From the NCBI GenBank assembly GCA_018302125.1, contig JAGWAC010000031.1:1-58240 (forward strand): a stretch of DNA of 58,240 nt, in the 5' to 3' direction. This document shows positions 14,334-48,200 of this stretch, piece after piece. Below the pieces are notes generated by a model. The model did no database searches and was not told the DNA's origin. It saw nothing but the letters and a program-made list of their open reading frames with translations. Within the stretch, counting starts at the first letter, position 1. Every line of letters begins with the position of its first letter. The translations under genes were made by a program, and so were the position numbers. Source of the stretch: Candidatus Woesearchaeota archaeon (GTDB taxonomy: Archaea; Nanobdellota; Nanobdellia; SCGC-AAA011-G17; JACPIM01).

Positions 14334-14601
14334 TTAGATTTTTACAAGATCTTGCGTGAATTCCTGTTTATCCTGCAGGAGGTCACTGCTATTGGGATGC
14401 GATTTAGACATGCAAGTCAAGGATTCTTCGGAGTCCTGGCGTACGGCTCAGTAACACGTCGATAATCTGCCTTATGGTCTGGGATAACCTTGAGAAATTG
14501 AGGATAAGCCCAGATAAGAAAAAACTACTGGAATGTGTTTTTTCTGAAAAGCAATGCCATAAGATGAGTCGGCGGCTGATTAGGTAGTTGGTGAGGTAAA
14601 G

Positions 14602-14631
14602 ATTAGAATCAACCTTGATTCTAAATTACAA
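14602..14631 (+). other. 16S BHB intron, 30 nt (~E. coli 265/266)
   Basis: GTAA/TTAC helix, bulges AG^A and AA^G, 10-bp intron stem; splicing restores GGTGAGGTAAAGGCTCACC. Confidence 0.85.
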
Positions 14632-15117
14632 GCTCACCAAGCCTGTGATCAGTAAGGGGAATGAAAGTTCTGGCCTTGAGAAGGACACTGAGACAAGGGT
14701 CCTAGCCCTAAGGGGTGCAGCAGTCGCGAAACCTTTACAATGCGCGTAAGCGTGATAGGGGTATCCCAAGTGCCTACCTTCTGGGTAGGCTTTTGCTGAG
14801 TATAAATAGCTCAGAGAATAAGTGGTGGGCAAGACTGGTGCCAGCAGCCGCGGTAACCCCAGCGCCACAAGTGGTGACCACAATTATTGGGCCTAAAGCG
14901 TCCGTAGCTGGCTCAAAAAATCCTTTGTGAAATTGTTGGACTCAATCTAACAACGTGCAGAGGAGACTTTTGGGCTTGAGACCGGGAAGAGATAGAAGTA
15001 TTCCTTGGGGAGCGGTTAAATGTTATAATCCTTGGAGGACTACCAATAGCGAAGGCATCTATCTAGAACGGGTCTGACAGTGAGGGACGAAAGCTAGGGG
15101 AGCAACGCGGATTAGAT

Positions 15118-15201
15118 ATGGACAAGAAACTTATAAAATTTAAAATAATGTTGCAAAAAAATTAATTTATTTTAAATAAATGTCTCTTATGTTCACTAAA
15201 T
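15118..15201 (+). other. 16S BHB intron, 84 nt (~793/794)
   Basis: TTAG/CTAA helix, bulges AT^A and AT^A; splicing restores GGATTAGATACCCG. Confidence 0.9.
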
Positions 15202-15308
15202 ACCCGATTAGTCCTAGCTGTAAACGCTGCGAACTAGGTGTTGCATATTCTTTGGGAGTATGCAGTGCCGGAGCGAAGGTGTTAAGTTCGCCGCCTGGGA
15301 AGTACGGC

Positions 15309-15341
<33 letters not shown>

Positions 15342-16015
15342 CGCACTACAAGGGGTGAAGTGTGCGGTTTAATCTAACTCTACTCAGAAAATCTTACCAT
15401 GGGCGATGGCATGATGAAGGTCAGATTAAAGGTCTTACCTAAAGGGCCCAGAGATGCTGCATGGCCGTCGTCAGCTCGTGCCGTGAGGTGTCACGTTAAG
15501 TCGTGCAACGAGCAAGACCTACATTTATAGTTGCTAACGAGTCTTTTCGATGTTCGAGCACACTATGAAGACTGCCTTGGTAACAAGGAGGAAGGTGTAG
15601 GCAACGATAGGTCTGTATGGCTCGAATCTCATGGGATACACACGCACTGCAATGATAAGGACAATAGGATACAACTCCGTAAGGAGAAGTTAATCCCTCA
15701 AACCTTATCTTAGTTCAGATTGAGGGTTGTAACTCACCCTCATGAAGCCGGAATCCCTAGTAATCGGATATCATCAGTGTCCGGTGAATACGTCAATGTG
15801 CCTTGCACACACTGCCCATCAAGTCAACCGAGCAGAGTTTTGGTGAGGTTTAGTTTTTAGCTAAATCAAATCAGAGCTCAGTAAGGTGGGTTAAGTTGTC
15901 ACAAGGTATCTGTAGGGGAACCTGCAGATGGATCACCTCCTTTTATTTTATCTTTTACTAAGTACACAAACTAATTACATGCTTGAAAAAATTATGGGCC
16001 CGTAGCTCAGTCTGG

Positions 16016-17592: not shown

Positions 17593-18384
17593 CTTTCAAG
17601 GTTATACGCCCTGAAGATGGACGGGGCTAAATCAGTTACCGATACTATAGACTAGTTTAAAAAACTAAGTGGTAGGCAGGCGCTTTATTAGGGTAGAAGC
17701 TTTTTCAAAAGAAAAAGTGGACCTAATAAAATTGAGAATCCTGGTAGTAGTAGGAGCAATATAGGGTAAGACTCCCTAATATCTGAAGAGTAAGGGTTTC
17801 TTAGCAATGCAAATCAGCTAAGAGTAAGTTAATCCTAACCAAAGGCCTAACAGGTCTTCGGGAATGGGAAAAAGGTTAATATTCCTTTACTGTTTAAGTA
17901 CATGTGGCAACACAAATTTAATTTCAGACGCTTTGGGCTAAATCAATATCTATTGTCGTAGATATTAATTAGAGCAAATCAAGGAAGTACTGTAATGGTG
18001 AGAACTTGATTAATTCTAAGAATAGTAGGCCTTATGGTTTATTTGATTGATGCCTTGAGCCCGTGAAAATGAAATTAATTGAATCTTGAACAATTATACC
18101 CAGAACCAACACAGGTACTCTAGGTGAGAAGCCTAAGATAAGATGGTCTAAACTAACTAAGGGAAATCGGCAATTTAGTTCCGTATCTTTGGTAGAAGGA
18201 ATCCCTGCGGTTGTGGTCTTATGATTGCAATTACAGGGCTCAGTAACAAGGCGGGTCCGACTGTTTAACAAAAACGCAACGTCTCGCAAGACAGCAATGT
18301 TGTGTATGAGACGTGACGTCTGCCCAGTGCAAGTATCTCAAACCTCTTTTCAAGGAGGCTAAGGACTTGTAAACGGCGGGAATA

Positions 18385-18516
18385 TTTGTTGTAAGGCGGT
18401 AAAGGGAGTACTTAGTTCAATATATATTGAGTATTGAGGCTGAAAGTAAAAGGAAATTTTTGGAAAATATTCCTGTTGAACATCCAGTACTCCTGAAAAA
18501 CCTTTAACAATTCTAG
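18385..18516 (+). other. 23S BHB intron, 132 nt (H69, ~1912/1913)
   Basis: GGAA/TTCT helix, bulges TA^T and AG^A; restores GGGAATAACTATAATTCTC. Confidence 0.85.
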
Positions 18517-18542
18517 ACTATAATTCTCTTAAGGTAGCGAAA

Positions 18543-18662
18543 TTATCATTAATCTCGCTTTAGATTTAAGATGAAAAAAAGCCATTCATCTAAGAGAATA
18601 GCCTTTGGGTTTGTTAAACAAATGAGAGAAAAATTTTAGCAATGGGATTAATGATATCGTTG
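18543..18662 (+). other. 23S BHB intron, 120 nt (~1938/1939)
   Basis: GCGA/TCGT helix, bulges AA^T and TG^T; restores AAGGTAGCGAAATACCTTGTCG. Confidence 0.85.
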
Positions 18663-19164
18663 TACCTTGTCGTTTGAATGACGACGCGCATGAATGGCGT
18701 AACGAGATCCGCACTGTCCCTAGTTAGTGTCCACTGAAAATACCCTTCTGGTGTGCAGGCCAGAGACCTCCAGCGGGAAGAAAAGACCCCGTAGAACTTT
18801 ACTGTAGTTTGTTGTTGTGATATAGATTCTACTGTGTAGCATAGGTGGTAGTTGCTATGCCTTGGCTGCTAGGTCAAGGATAGACAAAACTGAAATACCA
18901 CTCTGCAGAATTTATGTTGCTTACTAACCTGTTAGGACAGCAGCAGATAGACAGTTTGGCTGGGGCGGCACCCTGTTGAAAAGATATCAACAGGGCCCAA
19001 AGGTCAACTCAAGATGTTTGGAAATCATCTGAAGAGTGCAAGAGCAAAAGTTGGCTTGACTGGATTTTGACCATTAAAAAATCCAGAGACAAAAGTCTGG
19101 TCTAGCGAACCCCTATGTCCTTATTAATAGGGGCTAGGTATGACAGAAAAGCTATCTCGGGGAT

Positions 19165-19770
19165 AATCTAGGAGAAACATCAAAAGATTATATACAACTA
19201 TCACCGAGTATTAAATATGAATAAAAAATTTGCATATTTAATCGGTGTGTTGCATGATGCACATATTATCAACAAGAAATCAAATTCCCAATATGGTTTT
19301 GAAATTGAGCAAAAAAATAAAAAATACGCTGAATTTTTGTCAACTTTCTTTTCACAGTTATTCAAAATTGAAAAACCAAAGTTAGAATTACGTGAAAGAA
19401 GTTGGGGAAATTATTGGCGTATTAGAATTTATTCAAAGAAAATATTTGAAGAAATTGTTCAATATGACTTTACAAAAATAATTAAGTCGCAATCAAAACA
19501 AATTAAAAAGGAAATGATTCGAGGATTTTATGATGCTGAAGGATCAGTAAGCAGTGATGAAGTAAGAATGTTTAATAAAAATACAAAACTCTTAGAAACT
19601 TTGCATGATATTTTATCTACTGAGTTTAATTTAAGACTTGGAAAGATAGTTGTATCAAAGGATGATGTTTATCAGCTTCCAATTTATGCGAAAAATGATA
19701 AAAACAAGTTTATGAAAATTTTCAAACCAATTCATCCTGATAAGTTTAAGATTTTCTCTTAGATCCCTAG
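19165..19770 (+). mobile_element. 23S BHB intron, 606 nt (~2449/2450), homing-endonuclease-encoding
   Basis: GGGG/CCCT helix, bulges AT^A and AG^A, 12-bp intron stem; restores GGGGATAACTGAG. Confidence 0.9.
19217..19762 (+). CDS. two-motif LAGLIDADG homing endonuclease
   Basis: FAYLIGVLHDAH and MIRGFYDAEGSV motifs; lies wholly inside the intron. Confidence 0.9.
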   Translation: MNKKFAYLIGVLHDAHIINKKSNSQYGFEIEQKNKKYAEFLSTFFSQLFKIEKPKLELRERSWGNYWRIRIYSKKIFEEIVQYDFTKIIKSQSKQIKKEMIRGFYDAEGSVSSDEVRMFNKNTKLLETLHDILSTEFNLRLGKIVVSKDDVYQLPIYAKNDKNKFMKIFKPIHPDKFKIFS

Positions 19771-20572: not shown

Positions 20573-21187
20573 ATGACAAAGCAAAGAAGATATGGAATTG
20601 ATGTTATTAATATCTACCTAACTCAATTAACAAATCCAAAATTCTCTTTAGAAGAAGAAAAAGGTCTAGCTGAAAGAGCAAGAATAGATGAAAAAGCGAG
20701 AGAAGAACTTTTGTTGGGTACATTGTGGGTGGTTCCAGCTATTGCCAATAGATTCATGGGAAGTGGCTTAGATTATATTGATTTAATTGGTGAGGGAAAT
20801 TACGGCCTTATAAAATCAATAAATTCATTGGATAAGTTTAGGGGGAGTAGCAGATTCAGCACTTATGCAGGAGAAATAATTCTTAACACAATATATGACT
20901 TGCTTAGAAAAGAAAAAAGGCAGGCTAAATTTAAAATAGAAGATTTTACAAAATTAGTTGATCAAAATCCAGGCCCATTAGAAATTTTAGAAAGAAAAGA
21001 ATTATTGGGGAATCTTGAAAAAGCAGTTGAAAATTTATCGCAAGCTGAAAAAAGTTTTTTAAGAAGTCTATTTGTAAAAGATAAGAAAATAAATGCAATA
21101 GCGCAGTCAGTTAATAGAAAAAAACTTTTTTTATATAGAAAAAGAAATAAAATATTTGAAAAAATAAAAGAAAAAATGAAAATTTAA
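20573..21187 (+). CDS. bacterial sigma70-family sigma-factor-like protein
   Basis: Region 1.2 DVINIYL..SLEEEKGLA; region 2 VVPAIANRFMGSGLDYIDLIGEGNYGLIKSI..RFSTYA; C-terminal region-4-like HTH. Confidence 0.85.
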   Translation: MTKQRRYGIDVINIYLTQLTNPKFSLEEEKGLAERARIDEKAREELLLGTLWVVPAIANRFMGSGLDYIDLIGEGNYGLIKSINSLDKFRGSSRFSTYAGEIILNTIYDLLRKEKRQAKFKIEDFTKLVDQNPGPLEILERKELLGNLEKAVENLSQAEKSFLRSLFVKDKKINAIAQSVNRKKLFLYRKRNKIFEKIKEKMKI

Positions 21188-45248: not shown

Positions 45249-46248
45249 TTAATTATATAAATTCCTATTCATAAATACCTTTTTAGTTTTGACAACTAAT
45301 CCCTTGTCTTTTTCCAGAATTTTGTCAAAATCTATCTCTGTAATCCCTAAACAAATTAGTTCATCTTTCAAAGTCATAACAGCAACTAATTCATTAGCCT
45401 GAATGTTTTTATGTAATTTAACAACACCAGGAGAATAAAGATCAGAGCCATGGCATAGATTATTCACAGCACCGTCAAAAACCCATATTTTATTTAAGTG
45501 TTCAACGCCTTTTTCAACAGGCAGGATTATTTTTCTTATTTCTTTTTCATTTTTTTCTTTTTCATACAAAGTAAATGCATCTTTTATATCATGTAAAGTG
45601 CAAGAATGTTCAATAGAAAAAGGGCCAGCTTTAGTTCTAATCAATTCAGCCATATGTGCCCCAGTTCCTATTTTCTTCCCGAAATCATCAACTAATTTTC
45701 TTATATAAGTTCCTGCTTCGCATCCAACCTTAAATAATAAATCTTTATCTTCTAACTCCAAAATCTTAAAATAATAAATCTCTCTTTGTCTAATCTGTCT
45801 TTTTACAGCACTTTTTCTCGGGGGCAATTGTTTAATGCTACCAGTAAATTCCTTTACAGTTTTTTCAATATCTTCCAAAGAAACTTCTTTATGTAAATGC
45901 ATTATTCCCACATATTCTTTTCCAGCAACTAATAAAGTTTGAACTATTCTTGTAGCTTTATCTAAAGCAATTGGTAAACAGCCCGTAACACCAGGATATC
46001 CTTGGTTATTTTTTAACCGCTAAGGTCCCAGAGTGGCCTGCTTTATTTATTTCAAATATTCTTTGCACATAATCCGAAATTTGATGAGAAGTTGGACCGC
46101 TTGGTTTGTTGATATTTACAATCCCATAATGAATTAATTCCTCAATTTTTCTTTTATTTGGATCACAACCAAATTCAGGATTTGTCTTTCCTTCTTTCCT
46201 AACTATTATTTCTCTATCCGTTTTTTCAAATGGTAATAAATCTTTCAT
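45249..46248 (-). CDS. cbf5: Cbf5 H/ACA pseudouridine synthase, two exons (46248-46020 and 45997-45249), 325 aa spliced
   Basis: NKPSGPTSHQ, GHSGTL|DPGVTG, GTYIRKL, PUA domain; exons sum to 978 nt in frame. Confidence 0.93.
45998..46019 (-). other. 22-nt BHB mRNA intron within the cbf5 catalytic Asp codon
   Basis: CTGGGA-CCTT-AG^C-GGTTA-AAAAA-TAACC-AAGG-AT^A-TCCTGG. Confidence 0.92.
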
Positions 46249-46667
46249 TAAAATTTAGCTGTATCCTCTATTTTAATATCTAACTCTTTTGCTTTTCCAG
46301 CATTCATTTCTAATACATATAGGGCTTTTTGATTATTTTTATAAATCTCACATTTTTCTTTACAGGGTTGTGCATTCTCCTGTATAAATACAACTTCTTT
46401 ATTTGAATTAATCCAAATTATATCTAAAGGAATTAGAGTATCTTTCATCCAAACTCCATAAATACCTTCAAAATCAAAAACAAATAACATTCCTTTATAT
46501 TCCAGTAAATTAGTTCTATTCATTAATCCTTTTGCTCTTTCAGATTCAGAATCAGCAACTTCAACATCAAAACAATTCTCCTCAAAACAAATTTTTTGAA
46601 TTTCTAAAGAACACCCATTAATTAATATTAAAGTTATTAAAAATAAAAGACAAATATAAAGTTTCAT
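46248..46667 (-). CDS. DUF192 family protein
   Basis: ERAKGLM, GMLFVF, WMKDTLIPLDIIWI, VLEMNAG. Confidence 0.9.
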   Translation of the reverse strand: MKLYICLLFLITLILINGCSLEIQKICFEENCFDVEVADSESERAKGLMNRTNLLEYKGMLFVFDFEGIYGVWMKDTLIPLDIIWINSNKEVVFIQENAQPCKEKCEIYKNNQKALYVLEMNAGKAKELDIKIEDTAKF

Positions 46668-46727
46668 AATAAAAAGTTGGAGTTTTATATTTATATATAT
46701 TTTTGATTAAACTTTTTCATAAAAAGT

Positions 46728-47252
46728 TTACTTGGCAATCATTTCTTTTTTGTCTTTTCTTTTCGGTCTGTCTTTTCCCCTGATTTTTTCTTCCTGTTCC
46801 TTAGTTAATTCTTTTATTTCTATGCCTATTTTTTTCTTTTCTGTTGTAGGTTGTTCTAAAACCTTTTTCTTTTCTTCCTCTTGTTGTTCTTTCTTAACAG
46901 CTTCTGAATCAACTTTATCCATTAAAGCTCTTACTTCTTCTTTCTTAGCAACTTCTTTAACAGGTTTTTCAGGAATTTTTTCTTCTGGCGCTCCTACTAA
47001 TTCAGCTTTTACTATGCCTGTTTTATCTTTAATAGTTTTGACAAGAACATGATGTGGAACATTTTTCCTTCCATTTTTCAAAATAGCCTGGTTCAAATAT
47101 CTACCAATTTTAACATTTTCAGATTTCATATGCTTGACTAAAAATTCCCTAAGAGCTCTTGAAGCTTTAGCAGCCCTAACATATTTTGGTACTTTCATTG
47201 CTTCTTTTCTCAATGGTACATTATATATTCTTTCTATTTCTTGTTCTGTCAT
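46728..47252 (-). CDS. rpl31e: ribosomal protein eL31 with charged C-terminal tail
   Basis: ERIYNVPLR, RAAKA, VKIGRYLN. Confidence 0.92.
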   Translation of the reverse strand: MTEQEIERIYNVPLRKEAMKVPKYVRAAKASRALREFLVKHMKSENVKIGRYLNQAILKNGRKNVPHHVLVKTIKDKTGIVKAELVGAPEEKIPEKPVKEVAKKEEVRALMDKVDSEAVKKEQQEEEKKKVLEQPTTEKKKIGIEIKELTKEQEEKIRGKDRPKRKDKKEMIAK

Positions 47253-47314
47253 TTTTTATTTTCACTGAGCACTTTTCTTAAAAAGGTTTTTTTGATTAAA
47301 CTTTTTTTAAAAGT

Positions 47315-47488
47315 TTATGCCCGAGTCTTTACTCTTCTCCAGTGTCTTTTTACTTGAGTATGTCTTCCAGGATGAACTCTTCTTTTAGGCCCATATATTT
47401 TTAAAACTGTCCAAAAAGGAGCCCACTTAGTTTGACTCATTCTCTTCATTAATCTTTTCTTTTTTGCTGCTGGTTTGACTCTTGCCAT
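47315..47488 (-). CDS. rpl39e: ribosomal protein eL39 (not in ORF track)
   Basis: MARVKPAAKKKRLMK...WAPFW...KRHWRRVKTRA; lies between PDCD5 and eL31 as in the archaeal operon. Confidence 0.9.
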   Translation of the reverse strand: MARVKPAAKKKRLMKRMSQTKWAPFWTVLKIYGPKRRVHPGRHTQVKRHWRRVKTRA

Positions 47489-47527
47489 TTTTTCGTATGT
47501 TTTTTGCTAGAGCATTTTTAAAAAAGC

Positions 47528-47788
47528 TTATTTAATTATTCTAAATTGTTTTTTATTTTCTTGAAGTTTTTTTAAAATCTCCTTAAACTCAGCATCAGTT
47601 AATTTTTGATTTAAATACTTTTGGTTTATAGATTGTACAATAAATATTCCCACCTGTAAAGCAAATTCAGGGTTAGCTGTTTTAATAGCAAAATATCTTG
47701 ATAAAGCTCCTTTATCTAAACATGTTCTTAAATTGTTTTCAAGAAGAATTATTTGTTTCTGAATATCTTCTGATGGATCATTTTGCAT
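47528..47788 (-). CDS. PDCD5-like DNA-binding protein
   Basis: ALSRYFAIK..NPE, LTDAEFKEIL; conserved gene order. Confidence 0.8.
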   Translation of the reverse strand: MQNDPSEDIQKQIILLENNLRTCLDKGALSRYFAIKTANPEFALQVGIFIVQSINQKYLNQKLTDAEFKEILKKLQENKKQFRIIK

Positions 47789-48200
47789 TTTGTGATATTT
47801 TGTCTAAAAAACTTTTTCCTTTAGGAGTCAAAGTTCTTCCCTTCTTATTCTTAATTTCAGCTTTTTTAACCAATTCTGCTTTCTCAAGCTGCTGTAAAAT
47901 AGTTCTTATAATCTTTCCACCAGAGTTATATGTGTGCTCTGGTTTATGTCCATTGTTTTTTCTAGAACTATATTTTACTCTTAATCTATTAACTCCTATT
48001 AAATTATTAATATAAACCTTTCTTAAAATTGAAGCAGCTCTCTTATACCACCAGTCTTGCTCTAAAGGTGGTCTTTCTTTTGCTACCCCAGTTTTTACAA
48101 AGCTTGCCCAATCAGGCATTTTCAAAATATCAATTTTCTTTAATTCTTCAGCTGCTTTTTCAACTAACTTTGATTGGTCTGCATTATATATTCTTGTCAT
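47778..48200 (-). CDS. rps19e: ribosomal protein eS19
   Basis: PDWASFVKTG, WWYKRAASILRK, LQQLE. Confidence 0.95.
   Translation of the reverse strand: MTRIYNADQSKLVEKAAEELKKIDILKMPDWASFVKTGVAKERPPLEQDWWYKRAASILRKVYINNLIGVNRLRVKYSSRKNNGHKPEHTYNSGGKIIRTILQQLEKAELVKKAEIKNKKGRTLTPKGKSFLDKISQNAK

Follow-up and report, generated by a model that had tools for sequence, protein, structure and literature searches.

The cbf5 locus of this Candidatus Woesearchaeota archaeon raises the question of whether a gene that appears broken on the DNA yields an intact enzyme once its transcript has been spliced. Within the window (the whole stretch of DNA that was analyzed, 58 240 nucleotides), two ORFs are seen on the minus strand, one of 80 aa (46248..46006) and one of 220 aa (45911..45249), the latter being the remainder of a TruB/PUA protein. 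The gene is split by the 22 nt CGGTTAAAAAATAACCAAGGAT. The 80-aa ORF ends in ...AGHSGTLAVKK, i.e. ...KAGHSGTLAVKK followed by a stop codon, and without splicing the cbf5 frame stops four codons past the Leu. Deletion of the 22 nt gives a 978-nt frame of 325 aa that reads ...AGHSGTL-D-PGVTGCLP. The preliminary description of the locus had proposed two broken ORFs, an unspliced message that stops four codons on and a 325-aa frame with GTL-D-PGVTG restored by removal of the insert; the ORFs, the reading frame, the in silico deletion and the matches of the product to Cbf5 profiles bear this out.

The predicted spliced product is Cbf5. It scores 430 bits against the NCBIfam equivalog NF003280 (cut-off 242) and contains the Pfam domains DKCLD, TruB_N, TruB_C_2 and PUA. 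It also matches PDB 2aus (Pyrococcus abyssi Cbf5; E = 1e-105), with an alignment that runs through the GTLDP active-site motif. The junction in the spliced message is predicted to be GGGACCUUAG^AUCCUGGUG (the caret marks the joint or cut here and below), and a spliced cbf5 product across the exon joint would be expected to read GGGACCTTAG^ATCCTGGTG, 22 nt shorter than the genomic sequence. The start ATG of cbf5 shares one base with the stop of the DUF192 gene that lies upstream, an overlap which suggests that cbf5 is co-transcribed with ribosomal-protein genes. The gene string at window positions 46248–48200 (minus strand) is S19e, PF01984 (dsDNA_bind), a 57-aa ORF, L31e, (DUF192) and cbf5; the same S19e...cbf5 string is conserved in the intron-bearing relatives for which flanks were fetched (L014, L016, L103, L105 and L106). 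The coordinates of the features are collected in Table 1.

Table 1. Features of the cbf5 gene and of the 23S rRNA introns in the window
Feature	Coordinates	Strand	Remarks
cbf5 whole gene	46248..45249	minus	
cbf5 exon 1	46020..46248	minus	76 codons (M...AGHSGTL) plus G, the first letter of the catalytic Asp codon; Pfam DKCLD
22-nt BHB intron CGGUUAAAAAAUAACCAAGGAU	45998..46019	minus	Predicted from fold and frame restoration; identical in 10 independent-assembly loci and 4 DNA runs
cbf5 exon 2	45249..45997	minus	AT of the Asp codon plus 248 codons (PGVTG...NLYN) and stop; TruB_N, TruB_C_2, PUA
Full hBHBh' splicing motif	45991..46031	minus	Predicted minimum-free-energy structure; same architecture, with covariation, in 19 alleles
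23S rRNA intron, 132 nt	18385..18516	plus	Helix 69 loop, mature GGGAAUA^ACUAUAAUUCUC; absent from metatranscriptome rRNA
23S rRNA BHB intron, 120 nt	18543..18662	plus	26 nt downstream of the first; absent from metatranscriptome rRNA
23S rRNA intron, 606 nt	19165..19770	plus	LAGLIDADG ORF 19217..19762; RNA depth zero within, contigs skip it

The 71-nt region around the insert was folded with RNAfold, and a helix–bulge–helix–bulge–helix motif is both the minimum-free-energy and the centroid structure, with a z-score of −2.6 (one of 200 shuffled sequences folds equally well). The outer helix, CUGGGA/UCCUGG, has both of its strands in the exons, and the central 4-bp helix pairs CCUU of exon 1 with AAGG of the intron. 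The bulges, AG^C and AU^A, are each of 3 nt, and the inner stem GGUUA/UAACC is closed by the loop AAAAA. The intron displays the defining features of a bulge–helix–bulge (BHB), i.e. two 3-nt bulges on opposite strands, separated by 4 bp and flanked by helices. Cuts past the second base of the bulge on both sides would release exactly 22 nt and rebuild G^AU (Asp). The near-perfect BHB originally proposed (CCTT/AAGG, AG^C and AT^A, GGTTA/TAACC) is upheld by this fold, by the restoration of the catalytic codon and by conservation and covariation in relatives.

The insert is present in the DNA of many samples. The assembly index has the exact exon-1 ORF in 41 of its blocks, and at least 24 contigs of independent assemblies (JGI and several ENA groundwater and soil assemblies) carry it. 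The identical 22 nt were found in ten of the ten loci fetched, with adjacent exon bases that vary synonymously between strains, and Logan contigs of four separate DNA runs span the site without insertion or deletion. Close strains differ in cbf5 by seven synonymous and three non-synonymous codons, with the intron unchanged. The possibility of an artefact, to be revealed by reads lacking the 22 nt, had been raised from the start; with the insert present in at least 24 contigs and in four DNA runs, it is not an assembly artefact.

A query with the exon-1 ORF retrieves short proteins only, owing to the length rule of the search. It gave 161 matches among short proteins, and about 100 distinct clusters (at 90% identity; 55–81% identical) stop 1–8 residues past GHSGTL, many of them well within long contigs. 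The residue past the Leu always has a G-initial codon (58 Glu, 20 Val, 15 Ala, 5 Asp and 2 Gly), as expected if only the G of the Asp codon remains in exon 1. From loci fetched by identity and from a metagenome scan, 19 distinct intron alleles of 12–22 nt were gathered, all of them at G^AT. Removal of the intron gave whole ORFs in all 20 intron-bearing loci that are complete at both ends, most of 322–329 aa.

The central helix is paired in each of the 19 alleles (100% of cells) and occurs in five variants (CCUU/AAGG, CCUU/GAGG, CUCU/AGAG, CACU/AGUG and CAUU/AAUG), with CG, UA or AU pairs at one position and UA or CG at another, so that where the Thr and Leu codons change synonymously, the intron changes with them. 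Both partners have changed in all five pairs of the inner helix and in nine of the 15 pairs overall. Over the whole motif 89.7% of cells are paired, compared with 76.3% after shuffling, and none of 500 shuffles attains the observed value; sliding the 3' partner by 1–3 columns lowers pairing to 32–53%. Compensatory substitutions, as required of a BHB intron, are present among the relatives. In alleles of 12–16 nt the inner helix is reduced to a loop, which makes them relaxed bulge–helix–loop forms; the window intron is strictly canonical.

As the outer and central helices are built of codons, their bases must serve both the protein sequence and the RNA structure. We compared 18 intron-bearing alleles with 66 intronless relatives, using raw tests that ignore shared ancestry. 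The Gly codon is GGG in 14 of 18 intron-bearing alleles versus nine of 66 intronless ones (Fisher p = 5e-7, kinship ignored), the Asp codon is GAT in 18/18 versus 47/66, the Leu codon ends in A (the first bulge base) in 18/18 versus 32/66 and the Pro codon is CCC in 10/18 versus 8/66. The mean number of contiguous outer-helix pairs is 4.06 with an intron and 0.94 without (Mann–Whitney p = 8e-9, kinship ignored). A phylogenetically independent contrast of intron presence with helix codons has only three well-supported pairs, all in the same direction but too few to reach significance (p ≥ 0.25). Judged from these codon counts, synonymous sites of the exons favor pairing in the outer helix and appear to be constrained only where an intron is present. 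An intrinsic hotspot, in which the GTLDP exon context alone forms the outer helix, was also considered and, for the nucleotide sequence, rejected, the intronless mean being only 0.94 contiguous pairs; the idea that the GTLDP coding sequence acts as a proto-BHB that attracts introns is disfavored because intronless genes have low pairing potential.

Two pairs of diverged alleles have identical introns. Between the window allele (L004) and L020, residue identity is 76% and 53% of fourfold-degenerate sites are different; their introns nevertheless match at 22 of 22 positions, and the flanking exon bases differ at five of 29. For L075 and L099, the latter a marine contig, the corresponding figures are 79% of residues shared and 49% of fourfold sites different, with introns identical at 16 of 16. 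In these two pairs the intron, including its loop and bulge bases, seems more conserved than saturated synonymous sites or than structure alone would require. Candidate reasons are that the endonuclease prefers certain sequences, that the excised RNA has a role or that the intron has spread laterally. A separate relative, L102 (positions 1792–3228; ENA ERZ27254763), has a cbf5 with a 15-nt BHB intron in the Asp codon and an intein in exon 2 (746-aa product; Intein_splicing and LAGLIDADG_3 matches), so that its cbf5 has one interruption at the level of RNA and another at that of protein.

These observations bear on other ways of explaining the locus. If cbf5 were a pseudogene, or the 22 nt a frameshifting insertion or assembly error, there would be no functional Cbf5. 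Gene callers do report two broken ORFs, and the enzyme is dispensable in some archaea: passages of PMC5029457 that concern Cbf5 describe a cbf5-deleted strain of Haloferax volcanii. As Cbf5 is dispensable there, essentiality alone is no proof of splicing. We nevertheless consider a defective gene or sequence very improbable, given an identical insert in many independent assemblies and DNA runs, conservation of both exons over about 100 lineages, intact ORFs (mostly 322–329 aa) on removal of the insert, the constant nucleotide position of the insert and its invariable folding into a BHB with compensatory changes, and differences between close strains that are mostly synonymous. The ribosome might instead bypass the 22 nt by programmed hopping or frameshifting, with no RNA splicing. 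Nothing specific favors this, the insert being merely short and stop-containing. The Asp codon is split G^AT and the letters past the insert are AUCCUGG; no pair of take-off and landing sites rebuilds GAU. The length of the insert varies from 12 to 22 nt, the constant feature being an RNA structure with bulges of the EndA type, and at the same site in Crenarchaeota the RNA is spliced, as seen from sequenced cDNA (PMC2738675). Bypass is extremely improbable on these grounds.

Split genes are a known trait of DPANN archaea, and cbf5 could in principle be a genuine split gene, as in Nanoarchaeum equitans, with two polypeptides that assemble into an active enzyme. The catalytic Asp would then be in neither polypeptide. 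The first in-frame start of exon 2 is a GTG at 45911, 29 codons past the junction, and its use would lose the DPGVTG active-site loop. A split gene also leaves the covariation of the BHB and the constraint on exon codons unexplained, and we find it highly improbable. The cbf5 BHB intron, as read from its fold and its relatives, is real and very probably spliced.

With high confidence, we infer that cbf5 is transcribed with its 22-nt BHB intron, that the transcript is cut by the tRNA-splicing endonuclease EndA and that the exons are joined by an RtcB-type ligase to give Cbf5. In the pre-mRNA, exon bases for Gly-Thr (GGG-A) would pair with those for the third letter of Asp and for Pro (U-CCU...) to form the outer helix. 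The central helix would consist of the Thr/Leu codon bases CCUU and of AAGG close to the intron's 3' end, and the inner helix of the intron's own stem, GGUUA with UAACC. In both 3-nt bulges (AG^C and AU^A) EndA would cut past the second base, and ligation would give GAU and the full 325-aa frame. The rebuilt Asp77 would be the equivalent of the catalytic Asp of Pyrococcus Cbf5. Since the unspliced mRNA gives only an 80-aa fragment without the catalytic residue, active Cbf5 would depend on splicing. Because the window motif is a strictly canonical BHB, in vitro cleavage by any archaeal EndA is to be expected. No Pfam match to EndA or RtcB was found among the 49 ORFs of the 58-kb window.

Neither spliced nor unspliced cbf5 mRNA was found in the public RNA runs searched, and splicing of the cbf5 mRNA is for that reason inferred rather than observed. 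None of the RNA runs in the index has cbf5 or its upstream ribosomal-protein operon, four metatranscriptomes with rRNA of the organism gave no cbf5 contigs (T-run matches only) and the cbf5 of the relative L088 has no coverage in RNA runs either.

The metatranscriptomes hold 23S rRNA of the organism in mismatch-free pieces of up to 298 nt, and these bear on the introns of the rRNA gene. RNA contigs that reach position 18384 run on as ACTATAATTCTCTT, which is the sequence from 18517, and in contigs that start from 18663 the preceding sequence is CTTAAGGTAGCGAAA, whose last position is 18542. Between 18384 and 18663 the RNA depth is zero except for the 26-nt micro-exon. The joins of 18384 to 18517 and of 18542 to 18663, with zero depth between, indicate that the 132- and 120-nt introns are removed; this is the case in RNA contigs of three metatranscriptomes. 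The BHB of the 120-nt intron is canonical (central helix GCGA/UCGU, bulges AA^U and UG^U). RNA contigs in three to four runs also skip the 606-nt intron. The organism is capable of removing 23S rRNA introns, which is good indirect evidence that it can splice. The 606-nt intron adjoins the conserved GGGGAUAA, which we take to be part of 23S rRNA domain V, and its ORF encodes a LAGLIDADG_3 homing-endonuclease-like protein.

Helix 69 (H69) had been described as intron-interrupted, and this holds: the 132-nt insert lies in the H69 loop and is missing from metatranscriptome rRNA. By our own E. coli numbering of the loop, the intron lies three nucleotides to the 5' side of the U equivalent to Ψ1915, and positions 1940 and 1942 of Haloferax are presumably the homologous H69-loop positions. 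Passages of PMC5029457 that treat these two Haloferax positions describe them as Cbf5-dependent. As the intron lies inside the loop, a guide RNA could presumably recognize the loop only after rRNA splicing. The Cbf5 mRNA and the likely rRNA target loop of Cbf5 both bear introns in this organism. A coupling of pseudouridylation to splicing capacity through the cbf5 intron, as suggested in the preliminary description, is speculation, with the co-occurrence of the H69 intron as its one basis. A wider proposal would be that the Asp-codon intron is selectively maintained and not a passive relic, that it is ancient (predating the DPANN/TACK split) or spreads between lineages, and that EndA and RtcB gate both the enzyme and its substrate in a checkpoint which places rRNA splicing before pseudouridylation; we judge this proposal to be unlikely.

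The host belongs to the phylum Woesearchaeota of the kingdom Nanobdellati. The intron is absent from 69 of the 77 scorable loci of the metagenome scan (closest relatives), and two 'Candidatus Woesearchaeota archaeon' genomes have an intronless cbf5 at 57% identity. These two intronless Woesearchaeota loci and one bacterial TruB were the matches in a scan of genome contigs with the spliced protein. In a Cbf5 tree the window sequence groups with six others (100% SH-aLRT support), and all seven members of this clade bear the intron (19–22 nt); the remaining carriers are interspersed among intronless sequences. The distribution needs seven changes on the tree, compared with 13.8 with shuffled labels, and well-supported branches force only one. 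A single origin with many precise losses and several gains both appear compatible with this tree.

In Crenarchaeota a cbf5 pre-mRNA intron is known from Desulfurococcales and Sulfolobales (Watanabe 2002; Yoshinari 2006; Yokobori 2009, PMC2738675). It lies directly after the first letter of the catalytic Asp codon, and its BHB is cleaved between the second and third bulge residues, with splicing confirmed by cDNA in several species (PMC2738675). The crenarchaeal introns are of 16–44 nt (22 nt in Sulfolobus solfataricus and S. acidocaldarius), and most of their motifs are unconventional BHBs that need a hetero-oligomeric endonuclease (PMC2738675). The DPANN intron shares the gene, the nucleotide position and the BHB type with these introns, and the size ranges overlap (22 nt here and 12–22 nt in DPANN relatives). 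Presence is patchy, with apparent losses, in both groups, as described for Desulfurococcales (PMC2738675). There are also differences. The host here, a DPANN archaeon of groundwater, is mesophilic and has a G+C content of about 29%, whereas the crenarchaeal hosts are hyperthermophilic; the window motif is strictly canonical (hBHBh'), unlike most of those in Crenarchaeota, which are unconventional; and DPANN alleles can be as short as 12–13 nt, with the inner helix only a loop, compared with a crenarchaeal minimum of 16 nt.

The preliminary description had cited splicing of cbf5 in Crenarchaeota as documented, which the cDNA precedent in PMC2738675 substantiates, and had called for a comparison with the crenarchaeal site; the outcome is the same gene and the same nucleotide. 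Its placement of the host in DPANN agrees with the intronless Woesearchaeota homologues at 57% identity, and its view that the intron extends beyond Crenarchaeota is strengthened by the many DPANN relatives with same-site alleles, the published reports found placing the intron, at this nucleotide, only in some Crenarchaeota. We found no report of a cbf5 intron in DPANN, or anywhere outside Crenarchaeota, in the literature searched. Crenarchaeal cbf5 is given as the only example of a coding-region BHB intron by Schwarz et al. (2020; PMC7714728), and the crenarchaeal case alone is still cited in papers up to 2025.

The geometry of two 3-nt bulges 4 bp apart is also that of the BHB introns of archaeal tRNA and rRNA, which are processed by EndA and RtcB, and the 23S rRNA of this same organism carries BHB-type introns that are removed in RNA. 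Unlike these, the cbf5 substrate is the coding region of an mRNA, with helices made of codons. The HVO_1309 mRNA of H. volcanii has a BHB intron in its 5' UTR that is processed by the splicing endonuclease (PMC7714728). That intron lies in an untranslated leader and not within a codon, and its gene and phylum are unrelated to the cbf5 case. In eukaryotic HAC1/XBP1 mRNA splicing, cleavage by Ire1 and joining by tRNA ligase or RtcB constitute a demonstrated stress-regulated switch. The cbf5 model resembles it in having a short coding-region intron, a protein endonuclease with a tRNA-type ligase and a frame change that gates the active protein. The endonuclease (Ire1) and the stem-loops of HAC1/XBP1 are different, and the likeness is one of analogy, not of membership.

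Coding-region introns removed by the tRNA-splicing machinery have been described for one archaeal gene in two crenarchaeal orders, and the DPANN cbf5 intron is a new-phylum addition to this one known family of archaeal coding-region introns. That many DPANN lineages have an intron at this very nucleotide would mean that the intron is much older than thought, that the site has been colonized repeatedly or that the intron is mobile between lineages. For annotation, about 100 public protein clusters that appear as truncated 'hypothetical' or DKCLD-only proteins would be parts of one intact gene. With the G+C content of the genome at about 29%, the BHB-forming exon codons point to selection on RNA structure that overrides codon preference.

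Other observations concern the RNA genes of the window. The sole tRNA-like match in the 58 kb, at 6869–6938 (minus strand), is weak (Rfam, 30.6 bits) and is not called by ARAGORN; perhaps it represents a tRNA gene that is disrupted or atypical. Directly 3' of the 23S rRNA, a 204-aa ORF (20573–21187, plus strand) matches Pfam Sigma70_r2 with E = 2.4e-11, which is unexpected in an archaeon. The 16S rRNA gene (14360–15941, plus strand) is 1582 nt long, compared with a model of 1478 positions, and may hold an insertion of ∼100 nt.
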